From assembly GCA_964496055.1 (NCBI GenBank), contig CAZBYX010000002.1, forward strand, positions 1 through 43,394: 43,394 bases of DNA. The letters are read 5' to 3'. The DNA comes from an uncultured Saprospiraceae bacterium. Lineage in GTDB: Bacteria > Bacteroidota > Bacteroidia > Chitinophagales > Saprospiraceae. A program made the translations under genes and the position numbers. This document shows, piece by piece, positions 7,763 to 36,275 of this stretch; the stretch's first letter is position 1, and each line of letters begins with the position of its first letter. The notes beneath the pieces were generated by a model. It had not been told where the DNA came from and did no database searches. It worked only from the letters and a program-made list of their open reading frames with translations.

Positions 7763-8269
7763 ATGAAGTCCTTCTTCCTCCTCTTCGCCGCCGCCCTGCT
7801 CATTTGGAGCTGCAGCTCTTCTTCGGACAAGCCCGCCGAAAACCCTTCTCCTGAAGCGGCCGCCCAGAACGCACCCGCCCTCCCCAGCCTGCCTTACGAA
7901 ACGGTGCAATACCTGTGGGAAAACTGCGATTACGTGGACTACGTCTTCTACCAGTTGCCCATCAGCATGAGCATGAGCGACCAGAACAGCATCCGCTACT
8001 CCATCAGCCACATCGCCCAGGATGCCGCTACGCTGAACCCCAACTGCCCGGCCATCGGCCGCATCTTCTTCCAGGAAAAAGGCGAGAACATCCTCGAAGC
8101 CGACATCCATTTCGGGGAGGGATGCCGCTACTTCGTCTTCCTGAAAGAGGGAAAGCCGGCCTACGCCAACCTCATCACGGACGTGGGAGTGCAATACCTG
8201 AACGAACGCATCACCCAGGCCATGCAGGTGCGTCGTCAGCTGGAGCAACAGCAACAGGGCGGTCAGTGA
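7763..8269 (+). CDS. hypothetical lipoprotein (168 aa)
   Basis: MKSFFLLFAAALLIWSCSSS is a signal peptide with a lipobox Cys. Four further Cys and a Gln-rich C-terminus. No family recognised. Confidence 0.7.
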   Translation: MKSFFLLFAAALLIWSCSSSSDKPAENPSPEAAAQNAPALPSLPYETVQYLWENCDYVDYVFYQLPISMSMSDQNSIRYSISHIAQDAATLNPNCPAIGRIFFQEKGENILEADIHFGEGCRYFVFLKEGKPAYANLITDVGVQYLNERITQAMQVRRQLEQQQQGGQ

Positions 8270-8439: not shown

Positions 8440-8892
8440 ATGCGAGTACTCATTCAAAGGGTTTCGGAAGCCTGGGTGCGCATCGAGGGGGCGGAGCGGG
8501 CGCGCATCGGCTGGGGGTTGTTGCTCTTTGTGGGCATCGAGACCGAAGACTCGGAGGAAGACATCCCCTATCTGGTGAAGAAGGTCAGCCAGTTGCGCAT
8601 CTTCGCCGACGAGCAGGGCCTGATGAACCGCAGCATCCAGGACGTGGAGGGGGAATTCCTGGTCATCAGCCAGTTCACCCTGCACGCCAGCACGAAGAAA
8701 GGCAACCGCCCCTCCTACATCCGCGCCGCGCGCCCCGAGCGAGCCGTCCCCCTGTACGAGCGCTTCGTCGAAGCCCTGCGCAGCGCCTCGGGCCGCCCCG
8801 TCAAAACCGGGGAGTTCGGCGCCCACATGGAAGTCGGGCTCGTCAACGACGGCCCCGTCACCATCTGGATGGACTCGCGCAATCGGGAGTGA
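8440..8892 (+). CDS. dtd: D-aminoacyl-tRNA deacylase
   Basis: ATG at 8440 gives a 150-aa product: MRVLIQRV...LLLFVGI...SQFTLHA...[10 protein letters not shown], including the Dtd SQFTL and GPVT motifs. Confidence 0.93.
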
Positions 8893-8983
8893 GTCGGCCC
8901 GGCTGCCGTCCTGCAGAATTACCGTACTTTCGAACTCCGTTCGGAAGACCTCTCGCGAACAGAGATTGTGATAACTTAGGGCT

Positions 8984-10030
8984 GTGGGAATCAAGAGCCT
9001 CCATATCGACAACTTCAAATCCCTGGTGGATTTCCACCTCGAATTGCCCGGCAATTTCGTGGCCTTCGTGGGGCCCAATGCTGCAGGCAAGTCGAATATT
9101 TTCGAGGCGCTGGAATTCCTGACGCACGTTTTCCTTTTCGGGCTCGACACGGCAAGCAACAACTTCGGAACCGCCAAACGCTATTTGAATTTCAATTTGC
9201 AGGACAAGCTCCAAAGGGGGCTTTCCGGGGATTGCGAGGCTACCCTGAAGATAGAATCCCACCTTGGCGAGCTGGGAGGAGTGATTCGTTTTCTTCCCAC
9301 TGAGGACAATTTCCAACCCAGCACCTATGGTCGAAATTTTTTTTGGTCCTTGCCTGAAGAAGATACCCGGGACCGGATCGAAGAAATCCGGGCTGCAGAA
9401 ACCAGGTTCGCCAAATCCTTCACGCGGTTGTTCATCGGTCGGGAAGATCTGGTGAAATTCAAGGCCGACGGTTCGGAGCGCTTGCGCATCGACGGGGCGA
9501 ATTTGGAGGCGGTGTTGTGGCGGCTGTTGCAGCGGGAGGTGGTTCGGGAGGAGCTGATCGACTGGCTTCAAACCCTGGTGCCGGGCCTGGAAAAAGTGGA
9601 AGTGCGCCAAAGTGAACTGAGCGGGCAATACTATTTGCAGCTCTACGAGCACGGGCTTGCGCGGCCGCTCGACAAGCATCTCATTTCCGACGGCACCTAC
9701 AACCTGCTCTGTTTGTTGGCGGCGGTCTATCAGAGCGACGAACCGCAGTTTCTTTGCATCGAGGAGCCCGAAAACGGGCTCAATCCCTATGTCATCAAGA
9801 CGCTGACCGAGTTCTTTCGAAGCGTTTGCGAGGAAAAAGGCCATGTCATCTGGCTCAACACCCATTCCGCCACCCTGGTCAAGGCCCTGCAACCCCGCGA
9901 AATCGTGCTCGTGGACAAGGTGGAAGGAATCACCCGTGCCCAAACCCTCCCCTCCGACATTGACCTGCACGGTCTGGACCTGGATGAAGCCTGGCTCAGC
10001 AACGCCCTCGGAGGGGGGTTGCCATGGTGA
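8984..10030 (+). CDS. ABC/SMC-type (AAA_21/AAA_15-like) ATPase, first gene of a two-gene ATPase + Toprim-like module
   Basis: GTG start at 8984; the in-frame stop TAA at 8972..8974 precludes an upstream start. Walker A GPNAAGKS (aa 30-37, nt 9071..9094). Signature-like ISDGTYNLL (aa 234-242). Walker B FLCIEEPE (aa 256-263, nt 9749..9772) followed by NGLNP. H-loop LNTHS (aa 291-295). An insert of about 190 aa lies between Walker A and the signature. Confidence 0.85.
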   Translation: MGIKSLHIDNFKSLVDFHLELPGNFVAFVGPNAAGKSNIFEALEFLTHVFLFGLDTASNNFGTAKRYLNFNLQDKLQRGLSGDCEATLKIESHLGELGGVIRFLPTEDNFQPSTYGRNFFWSLPEEDTRDRIEEIRAAETRFAKSFTRLFIGREDLVKFKADGSERLRIDGANLEAVLWRLLQREVVREELIDWLQTLVPGLEKVEVRQSELSGQYYLQLYEHGLARPLDKHLISDGTYNLLCLLAAVYQSDEPQFLCIEEPENGLNPYVIKTLTEFFRSVCEEKGHVIWLNTHSATLVKALQPREIVLVDKVEGITRAQTLPSDIDLHGLDLDEAWLSNALGGGLPW

Positions 10031-10593
10031 AGTTGGGCTTCATCGGTGAAGGAGATAGTGAAAAGCGCTTTCTGGAATCCGAAGCCTTTCGAAACCTGCT
10101 GCGAGAGCTGAATCTGGATTTCGTGCCGGAGGTGATAAATGCTAAAGGCGGCGGCAATTTGATCCCCGACAAATTGCCCGCCCTGGTCGCGACGATGCAG
10201 GAGAAAGGAGCCACCCACCTTTTCGTCCTGACCGACCGGGAAGATGACCCTTGCATCACCGCCGTCCGGGAAAGGGTCGGCGCCCTCCCCGGAGTGGAGA
10301 TAGTCGTAGCGGTTCGCCAATTGGAGTCCTGGTACCTGGCCGACAGCGAAACTTGCTCCCAGCTCTTCAGAAGGTCGTTTTTTTGCGAGGCGCCGGAAGC
10401 ATGTGAGCGCCCCTTCGAATTCATTCGACGGGAAATGCTGTCAAGTACGGGGAGAGGTATAAGGAGCAAAGTACTTCTTTCGGGGAAAGTCCTTCGTCTT
10501 GGGTTTTCCCTCGAGCGGGCGGCGGCTCATCCCAATTGCCCCAGCGCTCGGCGGTTTCTCGAAAAACTTCAATCGCTTTCAAAACACCCTTGA
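10024..10593 (+). CDS. small Toprim-like acidic-motif protein (DUF4276-type), second gene of the module
   Basis: ATG at 10024 overlaps the ATPase stop (TGA 10028..10030) by 7 nt. 189 aa. Motifs GEGDSE (aa 8-13, nt 10045..10062), LTDREDD (aa 69-75), and ESWYLAD (aa 101-107) match the Glu ... DxD ... Glu series of Toprim/OLD-type nuclease domains. The family call is from memory of DUF4276 N-termini, not from a search. Confidence 0.7.
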   Translation: MVKLGFIGEGDSEKRFLESEAFRNLLRELNLDFVPEVINAKGGGNLIPDKLPALVATMQEKGATHLFVLTDREDDPCITAVRERVGALPGVEIVVAVRQLESWYLADSETCSQLFRRSFFCEAPEACERPFEFIRREMLSSTGRGIRSKVLLSGKVLRLGFSLERAAAHPNCPSARRFLEKLQSLSKHP

Positions 10594-10597
10594 ACCC

Positions 10598-12301
10598 ATG
10601 ACCCAACGTCAACTGATCGAATGCGTTCCGAACTTCAGCGAAGGGCGGGACCTGAACGTCATCCGCCAGATCACGGCCGAGATCGAGAGCGTCGAGGGCG
10701 TCAAGCTGCTGGACGTGGACCCCGGCAAGGCCACCAACCGCACGGTGGTCACCTTCGTGGGGGAGCCTGAGCCGGTGGTGCAGGCCGCCTTTTTGGCCAT
10801 CAAAAAAGCCGCCGAGCTCATCGACATGCGCAAGCACAAGGGCGAGCACCCGCGCATGGGCGCCACCGACGTCTGTCCGCTGGTGCCCATCGCCAACATC
10901 ACCATGGACGAGGTGGTGGAATGGGCGCACAAGCTGGGGCAGATGGCCGGCTCCGCCCTCGACATCCCCTTCTACATGTACGAATACGCCGCCACCCGGC
11001 CCGAGCGCCGCAACCTGGCCGACATCCGCGCCGGCGAGTACGAAGCCCTGCCCGAAAAACTCGCCAAGCCGGAATGGAAGCCCGACTACGGACCGGCGCG
11101 CTTCAACCCCAAAGCAGGCGCCACCGCCATCGGCGCCCGCGACTTCCTCATCGCTTACAACGTCAACCTGAACACCACCTCCGTGCGCCGCGCCAACTCG
11201 GTGGCTTTCGACGTGCGCGAAAAGGGCCGCGTCAAACGCAAGGGGCACCCCATCACCGGGGAAATCGTGCGCGACGAAAAGGGCGAACCCGTGCGCATTC
11301 CCGGCGCCTGCAAGGCCGTCAAGGCCATCGGGTGGTACATCGAGGAATACGGCATCGCCCAGATCTCCATGAACCTGACGAACATCAACGTCACCCCCCT
11401 GCACGTGGCTTTCGAAGCCTGCTGCAAGAGCGCCGACCGGCGGGGGTTGCGGGTTACGGGTTCGGAGTTGGTGGGGCTGGTGCCCCTGAAGGTCATGCTC
11501 GATGCCGGGAAGTACTTCCTGCGCAAGCAGCGCCGCTCGCTTGGCGTCTCCGAGGAAGAGCTCATCAAAATCGCCGTCAAGTCCCTGGGCCTGGACGAGC
11601 TCACCCCCTTCGACCCCCAAAAGAAAATCATCGAGTACCGCCTGCGCGAGGACGAACCCACCCCCCTGCTCGACATGAACCTGCGCGCCTTCAGCAACGA
11701 GACAGCCTCGGAAAGCCCTGCCCCCGGCGGGGGGAGCATCTCCGCCTACGTCGGTGCCCTGGGCGCATCGCTCGGCACCATGGTGGCCAACCTCTCGGCG
11801 CATCGCCGCGTCTGGGACGACCGCTGGGAGGAGTTCTCCGTCTGGGCGGAAAAAGGCCAAGCCGTCAAGGACGCCCTGCTGGCGCTGGTCGATGAAGACA
11901 CCCGCGCCTTCAACGGCATCCTCGAAGCGGTGCGCATGCCCAAAAGCACCCCCGAAGAACAGGCTGCCCGCGCCGAAGCCCTGCAGCGCGCCACCAGGCA
12001 CGCCATCGAGGTGCCCTTTCAGGTCATGAAGCAGGCCCTGGCTGCTTTCGAGGTGCTGGAAGCCATGGCGCAGAACGGCAACCCCAATTCGGTATCCGAC
12101 GCCGGGGTGGGCGCCCTCTGCGCACGCGCCGCGGTTCACGGGGCCTTCCTCAACGTCAAAATCAACAGCGGCGACCTGGACGACCGCAGTTACGTGGAGC
12201 AGGTCCTTTCCGAAGGCGAACGCATGGTCGCCGAGGCCGATGCAGCCGAAGCCCGGGTGCTGGAAATCGTGCGCGCCAAAATGGAAAAAGCCGAAGCCTG
12301 A
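10598..12301 (+). CDS. ftcD: bifunctional glutamate formimidoyltransferase / formimidoyltetrahydrofolate cyclodeaminase
   Basis: ATG at 10598 gives MTQRQLIECVPNFSEGRD (the formiminotransferase N-terminus). The C-terminal cyclodeaminase domain has SESPAPGGGSISAYVGALGASLGTMVANLS. The start is only 4 nt after the preceding stop. Confidence 0.9.
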   Translation: MTQRQLIECVPNFSEGRDLNVIRQITAEIESVEGVKLLDVDPGKATNRTVVTFVGEPEPVVQAAFLAIKKAAELIDMRKHKGEHPRMGATDVCPLVPIANITMDEVVEWAHKLGQMAGSALDIPFYMYEYAATRPERRNLADIRAGEYEALPEKLAKPEWKPDYGPARFNPKAGATAIGARDFLIAYNVNLNTTSVRRANSVAFDVREKGRVKRKGHPITGEIVRDEKGEPVRIPGACKAVKAIGWYIEEYGIAQISMNLTNINVTPLHVAFEACCKSADRRGLRVTGSELVGLVPLKVMLDAGKYFLRKQRRSLGVSEEELIKIAVKSLGLDELTPFDPQKKIIEYRLREDEPTPLLDMNLRAFSNETASESPAPGGGSISAYVGALGASLGTMVANLSAHRRVWDDRWEEFSVWAEKGQAVKDALLALVDEDTRAFNGILEAVRMPKSTPEEQAARAEALQRATRHAIEVPFQVMKQALAAFEVLEAMAQNGNPNSVSDAGVGALCARAAVHGAFLNVKINSGDLDDRSYVEQVLSEGERMVAEADAAEARVLEIVRAKMEKAEA

Positions 12302-12325: not shown

Positions 12326-12333
12326 TAGCTTTG
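12326..12333 (+). promoter_or_regulatory. -7 promoter box TAGCTTTG upstream of the 12352 CDS
   Basis: Perfect TAnnTTTG. It contains the TTG (12331) that the ORF track uses as a start. The ATG at 12352 lies 19 nt downstream. Confidence 0.4.
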
Positions 12334-12351
12334 AAACAAAATCTGCCCCCT

Positions 12352-12957
12352 ATGCCCGCCGACAAACTGTGGAATTACCTGCGGCGCCTGTTTCAGTCCG
12401 CCGAAACGAGCAGCCCCGCCCGCCCCTTCCTCCACGAAGTGCTCCGGCGCGATGCCGACCAGCGCGCCGACTTCGAAAAGTGGCAGGACAGCCTCATGCG
12501 CCGCCGCATGACCGATTGGCTGGCCGACCAGTACGCCGTCTGGCTCACCGACCCCGATCGCCTCGACGAAGCCATCGATTTCCTCGACACCCCCTCCTCC
12601 AAAGGATTCGTCATCCACTTCCACAAAACCCGCTACAACCGGCGCGAAGTGACCCATCTGTTCGAGTACCTGCACCACAAGGTGCACGCCCTCGATTACC
12701 GCCGCCAGCACGCCGACGTGCGCACCTACCAACGCGAAGGATGGGTCGAAACCGTGGAACGCTACCACCTCAAGCCCCGCGTCCGGGCCGGGGGCGGCGA
12801 CAAACTCAACCAGCGATTCGGGAACATCACCATCGAACTGACCCTGCGCAACGACCAGGTCTTCAACCTCAAATTCCGCGCGAACACCTATTCCGACCGC
12901 GCCTTCCAGGAGGCCGACAGCTTCGGAGCGCTCATGCAGGAGCTTTTGAAAAATTGA
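12352..12957 (+). CDS. hypothetical protein (201 aa)
   Basis: Open frame 12331..12957. I prefer the ATG at 12352 (MPADKLWNYLRRLF...) because the TTG at 12331 sits inside a promoter-like box. Soluble and Arg/Asp-rich. No family recognised. Confidence 0.6.
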   Translation: MPADKLWNYLRRLFQSAETSSPARPFLHEVLRRDADQRADFEKWQDSLMRRRMTDWLADQYAVWLTDPDRLDEAIDFLDTPSSKGFVIHFHKTRYNRREVTHLFEYLHHKVHALDYRRQHADVRTYQREGWVETVERYHLKPRVRAGGGDKLNQRFGNITIELTLRNDQVFNLKFRANTYSDRAFQEADSFGALMQELLKN

Positions 12958-18858: not shown

Positions 18859-18912
18859 AATGGTGCTTTTTCAAGGGTTGCACGCTTGCATAGCCCCCCA
18901 TCAACTGAGGAT

Positions 18913-19893
18913 ATGAAAAGACTTTACCTCCCCCTGATTTTTGGTCTCACGAGCTTTTTGTCTTTCGGGCAGCAGCCTACCCAGTACTCCCTGTACATGT
19001 GGAACCCCTTTGCCTTCAACCCCGCCTATGCAGGACTGGACAATTCCCTGGTGTTGCAAGGGGTGTTCCGCAAGCAATGGGTCAACCTCCCTCAAAGCCC
19101 GACCTCCCAGATTTTCAATGCCCACATGCCCGCTTACTTGCTCGGGGGTGGGGCTGGGTTTCAGGTGGAGAACGAAACCATGGGCGCCTGGCAACAAACG
19201 ACCTTTTCCTTGGCCTACGACTACCAACTGACGCTGGGGCGGGTGGGAGTACTTTCCCTGGGGCTGAGCGCCGCCTTGGTGCAGCGCCGCCTCGACGGCT
19301 CCGCCATTCGCACGCCCGATGGCCAATACGACCCCGACGTACTCAACCCCGCCAACCCCGACCACCTGGACCCCCTGCTCCTCAACGGGGAGATGGATGG
19401 GCAGACTCCCGAATTCGGCTTCGGGGTCTATTTTCTCGGGGAACGCTTCCAGGGTGGGCTGGCGGTGCGCCACCTTGCGGAAAGCACGGTGGACATGGGA
19501 CCCGTCGGTTTCGGCCTCGACCGCACCTATTACTTCAACCTGAGCTATCAATTCGACCTGGGCCGCAACCTCAGTGCCACGCCTTCCGCCCTGCTCAAAT
19601 CCGATCTCACCCAAACCCAAATCGAATTCTCCACCCTGCTGAAATACAACGACAATATATTTTTCGGAGCCTCGTTTAGGGGGTACGACTCCAACAGCCT
19701 CGATGCCGTGTCCTTTTTGGGGGGCATCAAACTCAGTGAAAAAATCACCCTGGCGTACGCCTATGACTATACACTCTCCGAGCTGAGTACGGCCACGAAT
19801 GGTTCCCATGAAATTATGGTTCATTACAACCTGGGCAAGCCCATCGGCAAGGGACGCCCCCCCAAAATCATCTACAACCCTCGAAACCTTTGA
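18913..19893 (+). CDS. porP: PorP/SprF-family type IX secretion system membrane protein
   Basis: ATG at 18913 gives MKRLYLPLIFGLTSFLSFGQQPTQYSLYMWNPFAFNPAYAG, the characteristic PorP/SprF N-terminus. C-terminal HEIMVHYNL. Located directly upstream of gldK. Confidence 0.88.
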   Translation: MKRLYLPLIFGLTSFLSFGQQPTQYSLYMWNPFAFNPAYAGLDNSLVLQGVFRKQWVNLPQSPTSQIFNAHMPAYLLGGGAGFQVENETMGAWQQTTFSLAYDYQLTLGRVGVLSLGLSAALVQRRLDGSAIRTPDGQYDPDVLNPANPDHLDPLLLNGEMDGQTPEFGFGVYFLGERFQGGLAVRHLAESTVDMGPVGFGLDRTYYFNLSYQFDLGRNLSATPSALLKSDLTQTQIEFSTLLKYNDNIFFGASFRGYDSNSLDAVSFLGGIKLSEKITLAYAYDYTLSELSTATNGSHEIMVHYNLGKPIGKGRPPKIIYNPRNL

Positions 19894-19983
19894 GGCCGCC
19901 TACGGGCGGGCTCCGAAAATGTTAAAAGCCTGACCAATTGTGTGTGCCCGTTTGTTTGGGCCGTTGCTATTGGGTCAAAATGT

Positions 19984-19991
19984 TATCTTTG
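19984..19991 (+). promoter_or_regulatory. -7 promoter box TATCTTTG, candidate gldK promoter
   Basis: Perfect TAnnTTTG 108 nt upstream of the gldK ATG. It overlaps a 7-bp inverted repeat: CTTTGCC (19987..19993) / GGCAAAG (20003..20009). Confidence 0.35.
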
Positions 19992-20098
19992 CCAGCCGTC
20001 TCGGCAAAGCAAAATTCTCGAACATTTGCAGGGACTGAAGGCAAAGCGTGTATCTTTACCACTGCTTTTCAAATCTGAAGGAAAACTCGGGTGTTAAC

Positions 20099-21349
20099 AT
20101 GAAGAAATTACTCAGGATTTCGCTGGCGCTCTTCGCCCTGACAGCGATTGCCACCTCGTGCGGAACCAAAGAAAGCGGTCAGCTCATCGGCGTTCTGGAT
20201 CGGCCCAAGTGGAAAGGCATCAACCCCTACGGCATGGTGTACATCCCTTCGGGAACCCTCCACATTGGGCCCAGTGACCAGGACATCTCCAACACCTTCG
20301 TCCAGCGGCCCAAAACCATCTCCATCCAGGGCTTCTACATGGACGACACCGAAATCACCAACAACGAGTATCGCCAATTCGTCTATTGGGTGAAAGACTC
20401 CCTCGCCCACGCCTACCTGGACCACTACATCGAGGATGAGGTGACCGGGGAGGAACGCATCGATTGGGAGTACGAAATCGACTACTCCGACGAAGCCCTC
20501 GAAGACCTCTTCTATCAGGGGGATGACCGCTTCGCCGGCCGCAAGGAGCTCGACGTCAGCAAAATGGTGTTCGAGTACGAATGGTACGACTGGCGCAAAG
20601 CCGCCCACGATCGGGGCCGCTCCCCCCGGACCGCTTTCATCAAGCGCAAGAAGATCAACATCTACCCCGATACGCTGGTCTGGATCCGCGACTTCGCTTA
20701 TTCCTACAACGAGCCCATGACGCGGAATTACTTCTGGCACCCGGCCTTCGACGACTACCCCGTGGTGGGTGTCAACTGGCACATGGCCAACGCCTTCTGC
20801 TATTGGCGGACGAAGCTGTGGGATGCCTACCAGAGCATCCGCAACGACGGGGTCAACTCTGAAGACTTCCGCCTGCCCACCGAACACGAATGGGAATATG
20901 CCGCCCGCGGCGGCCACGAAATGGCGCCCTACCCCTGGGGGGGATACTATCTGCGCAATGCCAAAGGGTGCTTGCTGGCAAACTTCAAACCCGGGCGCGG
21001 CAACTACCCCGAAGACGGCGGGCAATACACCGTCAAGGCCGATGCCTACTTCCCCAATGATTACGGGCTCTTCAACATGGCCGGCAACGTCGCTGAATGG
21101 ACCTCCACGGCGTACTACGAAAACGCCTACTCCTTCATTCACGACCTGAACCCGGACATCCGCTACGACGCTACGGATGACGACCCCGAAGCCTTCAAAC
21201 GCAAGGTCATTCGCGGGGGCTCCTGGAAAGACGTGGCGTATTTCCTCCAAACCGGAACCCGGCACTGGGAATTCCAGGACACCACCAAATCCTACATCGG
21301 CTTCCGCTGCGTGCTGACTTTCCTGGGGCGGTCCATCAATGATTTTTAA
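20099..21349 (+). CDS. gldK: gliding motility / T9SS lipoprotein GldK (PorK)
   Basis: ATG at 20099 gives MKKLLRISLALFALTAIATSCG (lipobox). FGE-sulfatase-like domain with MVYIPSGTLHIGP, TEITNNEYRQFV, HEWEYAARGG, NVAEWT, VIRGGSW, GFRCV. Confidence 0.93.
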   Translation: MKKLLRISLALFALTAIATSCGTKESGQLIGVLDRPKWKGINPYGMVYIPSGTLHIGPSDQDISNTFVQRPKTISIQGFYMDDTEITNNEYRQFVYWVKDSLAHAYLDHYIEDEVTGEERIDWEYEIDYSDEALEDLFYQGDDRFAGRKELDVSKMVFEYEWYDWRKAAHDRGRSPRTAFIKRKKINIYPDTLVWIRDFAYSYNEPMTRNYFWHPAFDDYPVVGVNWHMANAFCYWRTKLWDAYQSIRNDGVNSEDFRLPTEHEWEYAARGGHEMAPYPWGGYYLRNAKGCLLANFKPGRGNYPEDGGQYTVKADAYFPNDYGLFNMAGNVAEWTSTAYYENAYSFIHDLNPDIRYDATDDDPEAFKRKVIRGGSWKDVAYFLQTGTRHWEFQDTTKSYIGFRCVLTFLGRSINDF

Positions 21350-21371
21350 ATCCTTGCCCCGGCTATTTTTC

Positions 21372-21413
21372 ACGACGACCTGGAGCGAACGGCTTTTCAC
21401 TCCAGGTCGTCGT
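21372..21413 (+). terminator. perfect 14-bp stem-loop just after gldK (terminator/attenuator or RNA-processing site)
   Basis: ACGACGACCTGGAG (21372..21385) and CTCCAGGTCGTCGT (21400..21413) with a 14-nt loop. No T-run follows, so it is not a canonical intrinsic terminator. Confidence 0.4.
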
Positions 21414-21457
21414 CGTATAGGCTCAAAGGTTTGATTCTCTGATTCTTATTCTTTACT

Positions 21458-21465
21458 TACCTTTG
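21458..21465 (+). promoter_or_regulatory. -7 promoter box TACCTTTG inside the gldK-gldL spacer
   Basis: Perfect TAnnTTTG 226 nt upstream of the gldL ATG. A TTTG lies at 21430..21433, 24 nt upstream of the box. Confidence 0.35.
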
Positions 21466-21690
21466 GCACATTTTCCAATGCATTCTTTCATTTTTGTGCC
21501 TTGGAAAAGTGTTACCTTTTACCAAATTCGGATTATCCCCTTGTGGGATACCACATTGAAACGAAAGCAACCAATACCTGGATGGAACCAGGCGTGCTGT
21601 TAGTGCCACCCGCTGAACACACCCGATGAGAGGCGGAAGGACCGACTGGATTCAATCCGGAATCATTCACTAACCTAAAAGCGAGTTACA

Positions 21691-22281
21691 ATGAGTTTCG
21701 TCAAGACGAAAGGTTTTAAGTACTTCAAAAACCTTGTGATCGGCTTAGGAGCCTCGGTGGTTTTGATTGGTGCCTTGGCAAAATTGGAATCGTGGCCGAA
21801 TGCCAGCCTCTTCCTCACCATAGGCTTGAGTACGGAAGCCTTCATCTTTCTCTTTCTCGGGGTGATCGGTCCGGAGCCCGATTACTACTGGCACAAGCTG
21901 TTTCCCGGATTGGACGATTACAACGCCAATATCGCTCCCTTGACGGTGGGCGAGATGGGGGAACAACCCCCTGCCTTGAACGGTGAAGTCATCGAACAAC
22001 AACTGGGGGGCATGCTCACCGAGTTGCAATCCATGTCGAAGAACCTCTCGGCCTTGAAAGCCTTGCAGGAAATCGACTTCTCGGGTACGAGCCAGCAAAT
22101 CCAGGCCATGAACAACTTCTACACCAAGCTCAACGAAGCCATGGCCGATTTGGGCGACAGCCTGGAAGACACCCGCATCTACAAGGAGCAGCTGGCGGCC
22201 CTGAACCGCAACCTCAGCTCCCTGAACACCGTGTACGGCAACGTGCTCAATGCCATCGCCAGCATCCGCCACGAAGGCTGA
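21691..22281 (+). CDS. gldL: gliding motility / T9SS protein GldL (PorL)
   Basis: 196 aa. MSFVKTKGFKYFKNLVIGLGASVVLIGALAKLESWP plus a second TM helix with the conserved Glu (LSTEAFIFLFLG), then a cytoplasmic coiled tail. Confidence 0.93.
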   Translation: MSFVKTKGFKYFKNLVIGLGASVVLIGALAKLESWPNASLFLTIGLSTEAFIFLFLGVIGPEPDYYWHKLFPGLDDYNANIAPLTVGEMGEQPPALNGEVIEQQLGGMLTELQSMSKNLSALKALQEIDFSGTSQQIQAMNNFYTKLNEAMADLGDSLEDTRIYKEQLAALNRNLSSLNTVYGNVLNAIASIRHEG

Positions 22282-22326
22282 GCAGCCGCATGGAGGACAT
22301 TTTTCCAATAACTAAAAAACATTGCC

Positions 22327-23919
22327 ATGTCTATACCTAAGGAGCCACGGCAGCTCATGATCAACCTCATGTATCTGGTGCTGACGGCCCTGCTCGCGTT
22401 GAACGTTTCGGCGGAGGTGATGAACGCCTTTTTCAGCCTGGACAAAGGCTTGAAAAACAGTGGTGCCATCGTGGACAAAACCAATGAACAAATCCTCTCC
22501 AACATCAACAAACAGGCCGACGCTTACAAAAACGAGCGCAACGAAGCCTTCCGTCGTGCGGCCATCGAGGCCGACAGCATCACCACCGAGTTCGTGAACT
22601 ACGTCCAAAAAATTTGGGACGACCTGTTCGAAGCCGCAGGCGGGGAAAACCCGAAAGACCCCGGCAAGCCCAAACGCAAGAAGGACAAGGACATCACCAC
22701 CCGCATGTTCGTCTTGGGTCCGGATGGTGACCCCACCAATGACGACGCCGTCGGCTACGAACTCGAAAAACGCATTCGCGAAACCCGCCAAGCCCTCATC
22801 GATTTGATCAAGGATGAAAATGGCCAAGTGGATAGTGCAATTATCAAGGCTATTCCCCTGGACGTAGAGGATTGGCAAAAAGAATCCAGCAAGAAGTCGG
22901 GAGAAGGCAAGAAAATCAGCTGGGCGGACTGGAAATTCCGGCAGATGCCCGTTGCTGCCGTATTCCCCTTGCTCCGCAAGATTCAAAGCGATGCCAAAGC
23001 TTCCGCCACCACCGTGCTGAACCACCTGTTCAAACAGGTCAGCGGGGAGGAACTCAAGTTCGATGCCTTCGAACCGGTCATTTCCGCCCGCAAAGGGTAT
23101 GTGATCAAGGGTGAGACCTATGAGGCTGACATTTTCCTCAGCGCCTACAGCACCTCGGCCGGGGACAATACCCGCATCTTCGTCAACGGCACGCCGCTGG
23201 AGGTGAAAGAAGGAAAAGCATCCTACAAGACCACCGCATCCGGGCTTGGACCCAAGAAATACAAGGTGCGCATCGAAGTGACCAACCCCCTGACCGGCGA
23301 AGTGAAGTCGTACGAGAAGGAATTCGAGTACGAGGTTGGGGAACGCTCCGTGACCGTGTCGGCTGACAAGATGAACGTGTTCTACATTGGCGTGGAGAAC
23401 CCCGTTTCCGTTTCGGCGGCCGGCGTTTCCAGCAACAAGTTGAACGTGAGCATCAGCGGCGGCGGCGGCACCATTCGTCGGGTGAGCGGCAGCCAGTACA
23501 TCGTGGAAGTGAAGAAACCGACCAACGATTGCCGCATCAACGTTACAGGTGAAGGGTTGCAGTATAGCAAAGTCTTCCGCGTCAAACGCATACCCGACCC
23601 CGTAGCTCGCCTGGGCAACAAGCAAGATGGCACCATGGGCAACGGTGAATTCAAAGCCCAGCAGGGCCTCATCGCCTGGCTCGACAACTTCGACTTCGAC
23701 GCCAAATGCAACATCCAGGGCTTTACCCTGGTGCGCGTCGCCAAACGCCAGGACCCCGTCGAGGTCATCAACCGGGGTGGCCGCTTCAACTCCGATGCAC
23801 GTCGGCTCGTCAATCAGGCCAAGCCGGGAGACACCTACTACTTCGACAACGTCAAGGCGCGCTGCCCGGGCGATGTCGCCGGCCGGAAAATCAATTCGCT
23901 GGTGTTCCGAATCAATTAA
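22327..23919 (+). CDS. gldM: gliding motility / T9SS protein GldM (PorM)
   Basis: 530 aa. N-terminus PRQLMINLMYLVLTALLALNVSAEV, the conserved GldM TM helix, followed by a long periplasmic region. Confidence 0.93.
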   Translation: MSIPKEPRQLMINLMYLVLTALLALNVSAEVMNAFFSLDKGLKNSGAIVDKTNEQILSNINKQADAYKNERNEAFRRAAIEADSITTEFVNYVQKIWDDLFEAAGGENPKDPGKPKRKKDKDITTRMFVLGPDGDPTNDDAVGYELEKRIRETRQALIDLIKDENGQVDSAIIKAIPLDVEDWQKESSKKSGEGKKISWADWKFRQMPVAAVFPLLRKIQSDAKASATTVLNHLFKQVSGEELKFDAFEPVISARKGYVIKGETYEADIFLSAYSTSAGDNTRIFVNGTPLEVKEGKASYKTTASGLGPKKYKVRIEVTNPLTGEVKSYEKEFEYEVGERSVTVSADKMNVFYIGVENPVSVSAAGVSSNKLNVSISGGGGTIRRVSGSQYIVEVKKPTNDCRINVTGEGLQYSKVFRVKRIPDPVARLGNKQDGTMGNGEFKAQQGLIAWLDNFDFDAKCNIQGFTLVRVAKRQDPVEVINRGGRFNSDARRLVNQAKPGDTYYFDNVKARCPGDVAGRKINSLVFRIN

Positions 23920-23988
23920 ATCCGTCCGGCAGCACACTAAGATTTCCGGCTTTCGAGTTTAAAATGCCTGAATGTTGAGCGCATTGGA

Positions 23989-23996
23989 TATTTTTG
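23989..23996 (+). promoter_or_regulatory. -7 promoter box TATTTTTG, candidate internal promoter for gldN
   Basis: Perfect TAnnTTTG 42 nt upstream of the ATG at 24038, in the 118-nt gldM-gldN spacer. Confidence 0.35.
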
Positions 23997-24037
23997 CTCG
24001 AAGTCCGGAAATCTTCTTTGTGAAAACTGAATCCGTT

Positions 24038-24901
24038 ATGAATTTTTCGATGAAATCCTTTGTGGGGCTGCTGACCATGCTCCTGCTGGCCCTGCCGCTT
24101 TTCAGCCAGCAGCCGGAAGGCATCCTTACCGAATCGAGTGACCCGCTGGGCAACCGCCCCGTGGACGATATCGTGGAAAAACGCCTCACCTACGAAAAGC
24201 GCCTGCTCCCCTACGACCACGTGCGCGAAGCCGATATTTTCTGGGAGAAGCGCATTTGGCGCGTCATCGATGTGCGCGAAAAAATGAACCTCCCCTTCGC
24301 CTATCCGGAGCGGCCCTTCTTCACCATCCTGATGGATGCTGCGACGAACGGGGAAATCACGGCCTACAGCACCGAAGACGATAAATTCACCTCTCCCCTC
24401 GGCCCCAACGAAGTCGCTTCCATGGGGACCACCATCGACACCATCGTGACCTTTGACCCCGAAACCTACGAGGAGCAAATCCAGGTCGTTCGCAATGACC
24501 TGAACCCCGAAGACGTCAAGCGTTTCCGGATCAAGGAAGTTTGGTTCTTCGACGAAGAAACCTCCACTTTGCAAGTGCGCATTCTCGGCATCGCCCCCTT
24601 GATCGATGTCAAGGATGACGCCGGAAACTTCCGTTATGAAAAGCCCATGTTCTGGGTGTATTATCCCGAAGCCCGGGAAGTGTTGGCCCGCGAACGGGTT
24701 TTCAATGTCGGCAACGACGCCAGCCCGGTTACCTGGGAAGACATCATGGAAATGCGCTTCTTCTCCAGCTACATTTACAAGGAGTCCAACGTCCGGGACC
24801 GGCGCCTGCAAGACTACCTCTCCGGGGTGGACCTGCTGCTCGAAGCGAGCAAAATCGAACAGGAAATCTTCAACTTCGAACACGATCTTTGGTCCTATTG
24901 A
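24038..24901 (+). CDS. gldN: gliding motility / T9SS protein GldN (PorN)
   Basis: ATG at 24038 (or 24050) gives MNFSMKSFVGLLTMLLLALPLFSQQ, a signal peptide. Conserved READIFWEKRIWRVIDVREKMN and KEVWFFDEE segments are typical of GldN. Confidence 0.9.
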   Translation: MNFSMKSFVGLLTMLLLALPLFSQQPEGILTESSDPLGNRPVDDIVEKRLTYEKRLLPYDHVREADIFWEKRIWRVIDVREKMNLPFAYPERPFFTILMDAATNGEITAYSTEDDKFTSPLGPNEVASMGTTIDTIVTFDPETYEEQIQVVRNDLNPEDVKRFRIKEVWFFDEETSTLQVRILGIAPLIDVKDDAGNFRYEKPMFWVYYPEAREVLARERVFNVGNDASPVTWEDIMEMRFFSSYIYKESNVRDRRLQDYLSGVDLLLEASKIEQEIFNFEHDLWSY

Positions 24902-36082: not shown

Positions 36083-36191
36083 GATTTGTTACGATTATGT
36101 AAAAACCCCTGGCGAATAAGTGAGTATAAAGAATCAGAATAGTCACTGAAACGCCGGTAAACGAGTGGGGGGGCATGGCCCAGCCCTCGAG

Positions 36192-36275
36192 TGCGGGTGG
36201 AGGGACTCGAACCCCCACGAGCGAAAGCCCACCAGATCCTAAGTCTGGCGCGTCTACCAATTCCGCCACACCCGC
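36192..36275 (-). tRNA. tRNA-Leu (anticodon TAG), class II with long variable arm
   Basis: The reverse complement is GCGGGTG TG GCGGAATTGGTAGACGC G CCAGA CTTAGGA TCTGG TGGGCTTTCGCTCGT GGGGG TTCGAGT CCCTC CACCCGC A. The acceptor (7 bp), anticodon (5 bp) and T stems all pair. The loop CT-TAG-GA gives anticodon UAG. CCA is not encoded. Confidence 0.92.

Follow-up and report, generated by a model that had tools for sequence, protein, structure and literature searches.

We analyzed a 43,394-nt stretch of DNA (positions 1 to 43,394 of contig CAZBYX010000002.1 of an uncultured Saprospiraceae bacterium; hereafter the window) in which two overlapping genes lie between dtd and ftcD: open reading frame (ORF) A encodes an ABC-type ATPase and ORF B a DUF4276-type, Toprim-like protein. 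Both match HEC-01, a catalogued candidate system, and we put a probability of about 0.6 on the reading developed below, namely that the pair is a stand-alone HEC-01 cassette, accessory and concerned with conflict (most likely anti-phage), which sits precisely in the short dtd–ftcD spacer and is probably co-transcribed with ftcD.

The gene pair and its family

The coordinates of both ORFs, the GTG start, the ATPase motifs, the overlap and the acidic motifs had been given in a preliminary description of the locus, and all were present at the positions named there. The features, all on the forward strand, are as follows.

8440..8892, + strand: dtd (D-Tyr-tRNA deacylase), upstream flank; Pfam Tyr_Deacylase, 2.3e-57
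8893..8983, + strand: 91-nt spacer that arrived with the cassette; missing at empty dtd–ftcD sites
8984..10030, + strand: ORF A, ABC-type ATPase (HEC-01A), GTG start, 348 amino acids (aa)
9071..9094, + strand: ORF A, Walker A GPNAAGKS (K36), read in the sequence
9119..9418, + strand: ORF A, hypervariable insert, aa 46–145, from the alignment of homologs
9683..9709, + strand: ORF A, signature-like ISDGTYNLL, aa 234–242
9749..9772, + strand: ORF A, Walker B FLCIEEPE (E260/E261), followed by the D-loop NGLNP
9854..9868, + strand: ORF A, H-loop LNTHS (H294), aa 291–295
10024..10030, + strand: 7-nt overlap ATGGTGA (start of B, stop of A)
10024..10593, + strand: ORF B, DUF4276-type Toprim-like protein (HEC-01B), ATG at 10024, 189 aa
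10048..10050, + strand: ORF B, E9, immediately following strand 1 (where Toprim proteins have their glutamate)
10234..10242, + strand: ORF B, D71-R72-E73, end of strand 3 (position of the DxD motif)
10324..10326, + strand: ORF B, E101, after strand 4 (ESWYLAD motif)
10519..10548, + strand: ORF B, C-terminal signature AAAHPNCPSA
10598..12301, + strand: ftcD (glutamate formimidoyltransferase-cyclodeaminase), downstream flank; Pfam FTCD_N, FTCD and FTCD_C

Among the PADLOC models, ORF A matches HEC-01A (PDLC04176) at 9.6e-87 (289.7 bits) and ORF B matches HEC-01B (PDLC04191) at 1.3e-57, with residues 1–187 aligned to positions 1–190 of the 192 in the profile; these scores lie far above the matches to AriA, AbiLi, mad3, Old, NsnB and GajA. 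As in HEC-01, the two genes lie side by side in one orientation (same strand, 7-nt overlap); their neighbors are dtd and ftcD rather than the genes of Hma or another defense system within which HEC-01 was discovered. HEC-01 was described as a candidate system that pairs an ABC ATPase with a TOPRIM protein and is found embedded in Hma systems (Payne et al. 2024, 10.1101/2024.01.29.577857). The family identity of the pair is HEC-01, and because both proteins match a catalogued system the pair is not novel in kind: the preliminary description had presented a candidate module of unknown mechanism, whereas the module is already catalogued as HEC-01 and DUF4276 homologs (Mad4) belong to MADS. DUF4276 had, moreover, already been named in the PARIS paper among the partners of AAA_15/21 ATPases. 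That ORFs A and B are real genes and not chance reading frames follows from the AAA_21 match, from homologs in hundreds of genomes and from the conserved overlap; the long antisense ORFs that run across the pair are the usual by-product of a G+C content (GC) of ~60%.

ORF A is matched over its full length by the Pfam family AAA_21 (6e-26), and at its N-terminus by AAA_15, AAA_23 and SMC_N. Its ATPase motifs are intact: across 50 homologs the Walker A residues G30, N32, G35, K36 and S37 are invariant, as are S235 and G237 of the signature, F256, C258, I259, E260, E261, E263, N264, G265, L266 and P268 of the Walker B motif and D-loop, and L291, T293, H294 and S295 of the H-loop. Walker A and the signature lie some 196 aa apart. 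In the insert (aa 46–145) mean pairwise identity among the same homologs is 16% and length ranges from 78 to 114 aa, compared to an identity of 76–80% in the ATPase motifs; we infer that the insert is the specificity or sensor region. An AlphaFold2 model of ORF A (predicted local distance difference test score, pLDDT, 91.3) has as its nearest structures in a Foldseek search the PtuA proteins of Septu and of retrons (E ~1e-12 to 1e-13, template modeling (TM) score 0.5–0.6), followed by SMC heads. Among the NCBIfam models, ORF A scores 83.5 bits for MAD3 (NF047739; cut-off 420) and 19.2 bits for PtuA (cut-off 500).

ORF B aligns with almost the entire Pfam model of DUF4276 (PF14103; residues 9–182 on positions 2–191 of 192), and it does so at 21.7 bits (E 2.6e-4), below the gathering threshold of 30.2 bits; yet the model is matched by all 51 members of the ORF B family (best 9.1e-10), and precomputed PF14103 matches are present on many homologs. 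The partnership of an ABC ATPase with a DUF4276-like protein, as first described, therefore holds. In the alignment of these 51 sequences, of which the closest relative is 55% identical to ORF B, residues E9, D71, E101, W103, P124, C172, S174 and A175 are invariant. The acidic motifs are GEGDSE (aa 8–13), LTDREDD (aa 69–75; family consensus LTDxD at D71) and ESWYLAD (aa 101–107, with L105, A106 and D107 at least 90% conserved), while the best-conserved segment of the protein (62%) is AAAHPNCPSA, whose residues A166, A167, H169, P170 and P173 reach 90% conservation or more.

Whether ORF B adopts a Toprim fold, as the preliminary description proposed, is a question on which the evidence divides. 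The AlphaFold2 model (pLDDT 95.6) has the topology b1-a-b2-a-b3-a-b4, with strands at residues 3–8, 32–39, 65–71 and 91–96 and helices between them; E9, D71/E73 and E101 fall, in order along the chain, where strands 1, 3 and 4 end, which is the Toprim arrangement. The conserved acidic residues thus stand at Toprim positions. Secondary Pfam matches recur in the family, all of them sub-threshold (OLD-like_TOPRIM in 10 of 51 members, RloB in 8, Toprim in 6), the best viral fold match in BFVD is an RloB-like protein (E 1.5e-3, TM score 0.52), and published analyses, including that of Payne et al. (2024, 10.1101/2024.01.29.577857), place DUF4276 in the Toprim superfamily. On the other side stand, besides the sub-threshold DUF4276 score, three comparisons: a Foldseek search of the PDB with the model yielded generic Rossmann-like matches only, with no Toprim among them and none at E <= 1e-3; the family profile found nothing meaningful among PDB sequences; and hhalign of the family against full-length P2 Old was non-significant, aligning only FIGEGDSEKRFLE (13 columns, at the first Toprim motif). 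NCBIfam holds no family for ORF B. Motif, topology, sub-threshold profiles and published analyses together make Toprim membership likely, short of proof here.

Genomic sites and accessory status of the pair

Among 185,579 species genomes, a pattern search with ORF B turned up 350 relatives, of which the best 80 all belong to Bacteroidota; genomic contexts were compared at ~75–77 related loci. Gene order is A then B in every locus compared, and the 7-nt overlap, RTGGTRA, is present in 75 of 77: A and B are obligatorily paired and their overlap is conserved. In the window the overlap holds both the ATG of ORF B and the TGA stop of ORF A (10028–10030), and the two genes are therefore taken to be translationally coupled. 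A Shine–Dalgarno-like AGGTGG or AGGAGG lies 8–12 nt 5' of the start of ORF B in all related loci (10004–10023 in the window); it codes for the conserved C-terminus of ORF A, GGGLPW, and may be a mere reflection of the Gly codons. Bacteroidota, to our knowledge, largely lack Shine–Dalgarno sequences.

The pair is built into operon-like arrangements. The downstream neighbor points the same way as the pair in 56 of 62 loci, at a median gap of ~33 nt, and the upstream neighbor in 52 of 64; in the window 4 nt separate the stop of ORF B from the start of ftcD. A scan of the locus found no convincing terminator between the two (terminator-like sites occur at chance level) and no sigma-70-type promoter; the scan does not cover Bacteroidota promoters and is uninformative for this phylum. 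It is possible that the 91-nt spacer upstream of ORF A (8893..8983) supplies the cassette with a promoter of its own.

Two housekeeping sites recur among these loci. At 18 loci, from Saprospiraceae and related metagenome-assembled genomes, it lies directly upstream of ftcD (in the order dtd–A–B–ftcD at L016). At ~35 loci in Spirosomataceae it lies between the genes for the two subunits of a split transketolase (confirmed with Pfam), in the order Transketolase_N, A, B, Transket_pyr+Transketolase_C, on one strand and with gaps of ~50 nt and ~40 nt (for example L039:8127–11556, L021, L080, L057 and L060); the genera include Spirosoma, Larkinella, Runella, Dyadobacter, Arcicella and Emticicia. The tree of A+B tracks this context (ftcD site vs. 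transketolase site): each clade keeps the pair at its own fixed housekeeping site.

A homologous pair also occurs in 27 of 5426 complete E. coli genomes, where it is embedded in BREX-1 between pglX and pglZ, six of the copies being on plasmids; on E. coli plasmid NZ_CP010234.1 (L179:7886–9570) and in 26 other E. coli genomes the gaps to pglX and pglZ are zero nt. Compared to the proteins of the window, identity is here 38% for B and 28% for A, and the motifs, the GGLPW end of A and the 7-nt overlap are the same; the B-type protein has 189 aa, and the annotation of the two genes reads only 'AAA family ATPase' and 'hypothetical protein'. The matches to HEC-01A and HEC-01B, the PtuA-like model of ORF A and this BREX-1-embedded pair support the view, taken at the outset, that the pair is a conflict module of OLD/PARIS-like kind.

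Embedding of this sort could also mean that the pair is an effector sub-module, dependent on a partner system elsewhere in the genome and acting as the nuclease arm of a MADS- or BREX-like system. The E. coli homologs are invariably found between pglX and pglZ; mad3 and mad4 are each needed for MADS defense, and cells survive deletion of mad5 (a methyltransferase) only when mad2 or mad3 is deleted too; and the HEC-01 representative of Payne et al. (10.1101/2024.01.29.577857), assayed alone, did not protect E. coli against any phage tested. Set against this, a HEC-01 representative from a cold seep, cloned alone, gave E. coli B protection from one or more of T4, T5 and T7, the pair is solitary at the ~75 loci in Bacteroidota, where no methyltransferase or defense gene was found within several kb, none of the annotated genes in the 43-kb window is a methyltransferase, and the MAD3 score of ORF A is far below the cut-off. 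We regard dependence on a partner system as unlikely.

The accessory status of the pair is evident from its closest relatives. The contexts of eight among the closest FtcD proteins were inspected. Clean empty sites, with dtd and ftcD 6–12 nt apart, are found at L172, L173 and L178 (FtcD 76–80% identical), and four of the eight contexts have other upstream genes and no pair. At L170 (FtcD 98% identical, ~93% nucleotide identity) positions 600–2212 hold a decaying cassette between an intact dtd and an intact ftcD: A is frameshifted by the loss of one nucleotide from a G-run immediately ahead of the conserved LPW end, for which a homopolymer assembly error is possible, and B has a premature stop at codon 27 besides the substitution G10R. 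The pair is missing from all 54 metagenomic ftcD loci that have sufficient upstream DNA (FtcD 64–76% identical), and loci with and without it are interleaved in the FtcD tree. At L087 (4299–5906), which is the closest of the metagenomic ftcD loci that lack the pair, its place directly upstream of ftcD is filled by a different ATPase of 535 aa (AAA_35 / AAA-ATPase_like); this suggests that the site takes other accessory cargo. At each of 69 loci the pair has a lower GC than its flanks, by a mean of 7.7 points; in the window, GC at third codon positions is 0.71 and 0.62 for the pair vs. 0.81–0.88 for the neighbors. Empty sites, decay in a close relative and low GC make the pair accessory, a solitary insertion as the preliminary description had it.

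Two vehicles for such an insertion were considered and rejected. Phage carriage was dismissed on the near absence of the pair from viral collections, with two weak matches in 2.9 million viral contigs and one partial match in 50,697 phage records. One of the two viral-contig matches (L167:4892–6462, an IMG/VR contig) is an A–B pair with the same overlap and a shortened B, of which residues 1–74 were matched. A transposon or other mobile element was dismissed since the cassette has no terminal direct or inverted repeats (short chance matches only) and no tRNA nearby. The sole tRNA of the window, a tRNA-Leu between tig and relA/spoT (36191–36275, minus strand), is unrelated to the cassette.

The surroundings had been described as housekeeping, and Pfam matches and the annotated genes of the window bear this out: dtd and ftcD flank the pair, and the others are recN, purD, gldM/gldN/porP of the type IX secretion system, tig, clpP and relA/spoT. 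Near the locus are a putative lipoprotein (168 aa; 7763–8269) and a 208-aa protein (12331–12957), neither with a Pfam family. The type IX secretion/gliding cluster at 18886–24901 (PorP/SprF, an FGE-sulfatase GldK-like protein, GldM and GldN), which places the organism in Bacteroidota, has a GC of 0.51–0.57, below the rest of the window.

Allele replacement and the role of the pair

Divergence of A and B is correlated with divergence of the flanks (Mantel rho 0.84 and 0.52; 0 of 2000 permutations), and it is far greater. Pairwise identities computed from the multiple alignment make the difference plain: loci L003 and L007 share 96% identity in FtcD, 61% in A and 53% in B, and two Larkinella species share 98% in Tkt, 53% in A and 45% in B. 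In the DNA of the same Larkinella pair, identity is 0.91–0.98 in the flanks and over the first ~145 nt of A, falls suddenly in the region of the insert of A to 0.34–0.67 until the end of B, and then returns to 0.96; the AAAHPNCPSA segment of B is the right-hand boundary of the exchange. The Larkinella alleles are dispersed over the A+B tree, and one transketolase site (L070:8997–12155) holds two A–B pairs in tandem whose mutual identity is 49% in A and 45% in B. A collapse of identity with such sharp edges is the mark of allele replacement, here at a fixed locus, and is expected under diversifying or balancing selection, not for a housekeeping function.

These data bear on a housekeeping role for the pair in DNA or chromosome maintenance (repair, replication or the cell cycle), on the model of RecF/RecR or of Cran1. 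The ABC ATPase RecF and the Toprim protein RecR parallel the pair in architecture, and ORF A has a weak RecF match at its N-terminus; Cran1 is an OLD-family protein with an essential, non-defense role; and the synteny of the pair is kept within housekeeping operons over whole families. Yet the RecF match (equivalog TIGR00611) amounts to 36.9 bits for a cut-off of 172 and is confined to the N-terminal 46 residues, the pair is carried by only 350 of the 185,579 species genomes, its presence is polymorphic with empty sites, its genes are pseudogenes in the ~93%-identical relative L170, A and B are ~50% identical where flanks are 96–98% identical, and GC is atypical at every one of the 69 loci. 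Such a role is largely refuted and we consider it very improbable. A core function tied specifically to ftcD, to which the adjacency at 18 loci might point, was rejected on the empty sites, the decaying copy and the turnover of alleles. Strict conservation beside ftcD had been named in the preliminary description as a finding that would speak against a defense insertion: adjacency is indeed conserved across a whole clade, but it is not strict, and no strict core role is drawn from it because the evolution of the cassette is incompatible with a core function.

A further alternative is that the pair is a selfish cassette of the addiction type, without real anti-phage benefit, whose loss is harmful either because the nuclease outlasts its ATPase inhibitor or because the downstream housekeeping gene needs read-through transcription. 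Same-orientation insertion with tiny gaps into operons of unrelated function (dtd–ftcD, tktN–tktC, pglX–pglZ), the co-directional and closely spaced downstream neighbor, long residence at fixed loci and the lack of a phage phenotype in the study of Payne et al. (10.1101/2024.01.29.577857) are all in keeping with it. However, L170 has inactivating mutations in both genes next to an intact ftcD, showing that loss of the cassette is tolerated, and empty sites are common; addiction alone does not explain the hypervariable, sensor-like insert or the many alleles that are kept; and nothing points to recent mobility (terminal repeats are missing, and viral contigs contain almost no copies). We think this explanation improbable too.

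We therefore return to the stand-alone conflict cassette as the preferred reading. Apart from the weaknesses of the Toprim assignment and the negative assay of Payne et al., two observations weigh against it: no defense genes were recognized on either side of the pair in the window or at the ~75 related loci, and lasting residence at one locus within housekeeping operons is atypical of defense systems. In its favor, the sharp replacement of alleles, the hypervariable insert, the low GC and the empty sites provide independent evolutionary evidence of selection of the conflict type.

By analogy with known systems, A is most likely an ATP-gated sensor that controls a Toprim nuclease, B. P2 Old (shown recently) and PARIS AriB are tRNases gated by ABC ATPases. 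On the model of PARIS, P2 Old and Septu, A would dimerize on ATP and keep B inactive in a complex of fixed stoichiometry; the insert of A would recognize a protein or nucleic-acid structure derived from the invader; and an ATP-dependent rearrangement would then activate or release B. B would act as a Mg2+-dependent nuclease by way of E9, D71, E73 and E101, and might cleave tRNA or DNA and so halt the infection, probably at a cost to the cell.

Taken jointly, the data also allow a wider reading, which we put forward tentatively and with the odds somewhat against it: that the Bacteroidota HEC-01 clade is a locus-locked, polymorphic immune cassette that embeds itself in operons. It would insert co-directionally between tightly spaced genes of any function (dtd/ftcD, tktN/tktC, pglX/pglZ) and use the transcription of the host operon; many divergent alleles would be kept over family-level timescales and exchanged by homologous recombination, for which the conserved 5' end of A and 3' end of B would serve, with the hypervariable insert of the ATPase as the determinant of specificity. 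If this were true, 'embedding' would be a property of the cassette and not a functional tie to the host defense system, and the alleles would form a natural series with which to map what HEC-01-type ATPases sense. The literature searched contained no description of such an operon-embedded, locus-locked lifestyle.

The pair of the window is itself not a new kind of system: the present contribution lies in the evidence from evolution and in the locus-locked lifestyle within operons. In environmental genomes HEC-01 ranks with the more abundant candidate systems, and the phenotypic data on it conflict; the present analysis offers concrete candidates for the sensing surface (aa 46–145 of A) and for B's catalytic residues. 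The occurrence of the cassette in housekeeping operons, besides BREX and MADS, alters both how 'embedded' defense genes are read and how they are searched for.

Comparison with known systems

The closest likeness is to HEC-01 itself, a two-gene system that combines an ABC ATPase with a TOPRIM-like (DUF4276) protein and whose hidden Markov models the proteins of the window match nearly end to end; the difference is that HEC-01 was defined from Hma-embedded copies, whereas the copy in the window is solitary between dtd and ftcD. Mad3 and Mad4 of MADS present the same domain pair, Mad4 being a DUF4276 homolog. They act, however, within an eight-gene, methylation-associated system, whereas the window has no methyltransferase nearby and ORF A is not a MAD3 equivalog.

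PARIS (AriA and AriB; OLD class 4) shares the two-gene architecture of ATPase and Toprim, and the ATPase of ORF A belongs to the same AAA_15/AAA_21 group as AriA (3e-26 for the generic PADLOC AriA model); the logic of a sensor ATPase gating a Toprim effector would, by analogy, also be the same. Differences lie in the effector, since ORF B is a DUF4276 and not a DUF4435 protein and has no AriB or DUF4435 match in PADLOC or Pfam, and in size: AriB is about twice as large as ORF B, and AriA is ~55 kDa compared to ~350 aa for ORF A, with a different insert. PARIS is, moreover, often carried by phages and satellites, while the HEC-01-type family of the window is almost absent from viral contigs. 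In the OLD nucleases (P2 Old, class 1; GajA, class 2) an ABC ATPase is likewise combined with a Toprim nuclease that has Glu/DxD metal-binding residues, but there ATPase and Toprim (PF20469) are fused in one polypeptide, and in the window they are two proteins; ORF B has no PF20469 match, and 10 of its 51 relatives match it below threshold. Septu and the retron PtuA–PtuB systems offer the nearest fold to ORF A, and they too pair an ATPase with a small nuclease; the partner, PtuB, is an HNH nuclease and not a Toprim protein, and the inserts of PtuA differ.

Finally, in its mode of residence the cassette resembles defense hotspots flanked by core genes and allelic immunity loci, where content that changes fast is held at a fixed position between conserved genes and is swapped through flanking homology. 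A site of the kind seen in the window differs in holding divergent alleles of a single gene family rather than an island of diverse cargo, and in that the cassette sits inside operons, to the point of splitting tktN from tktC.

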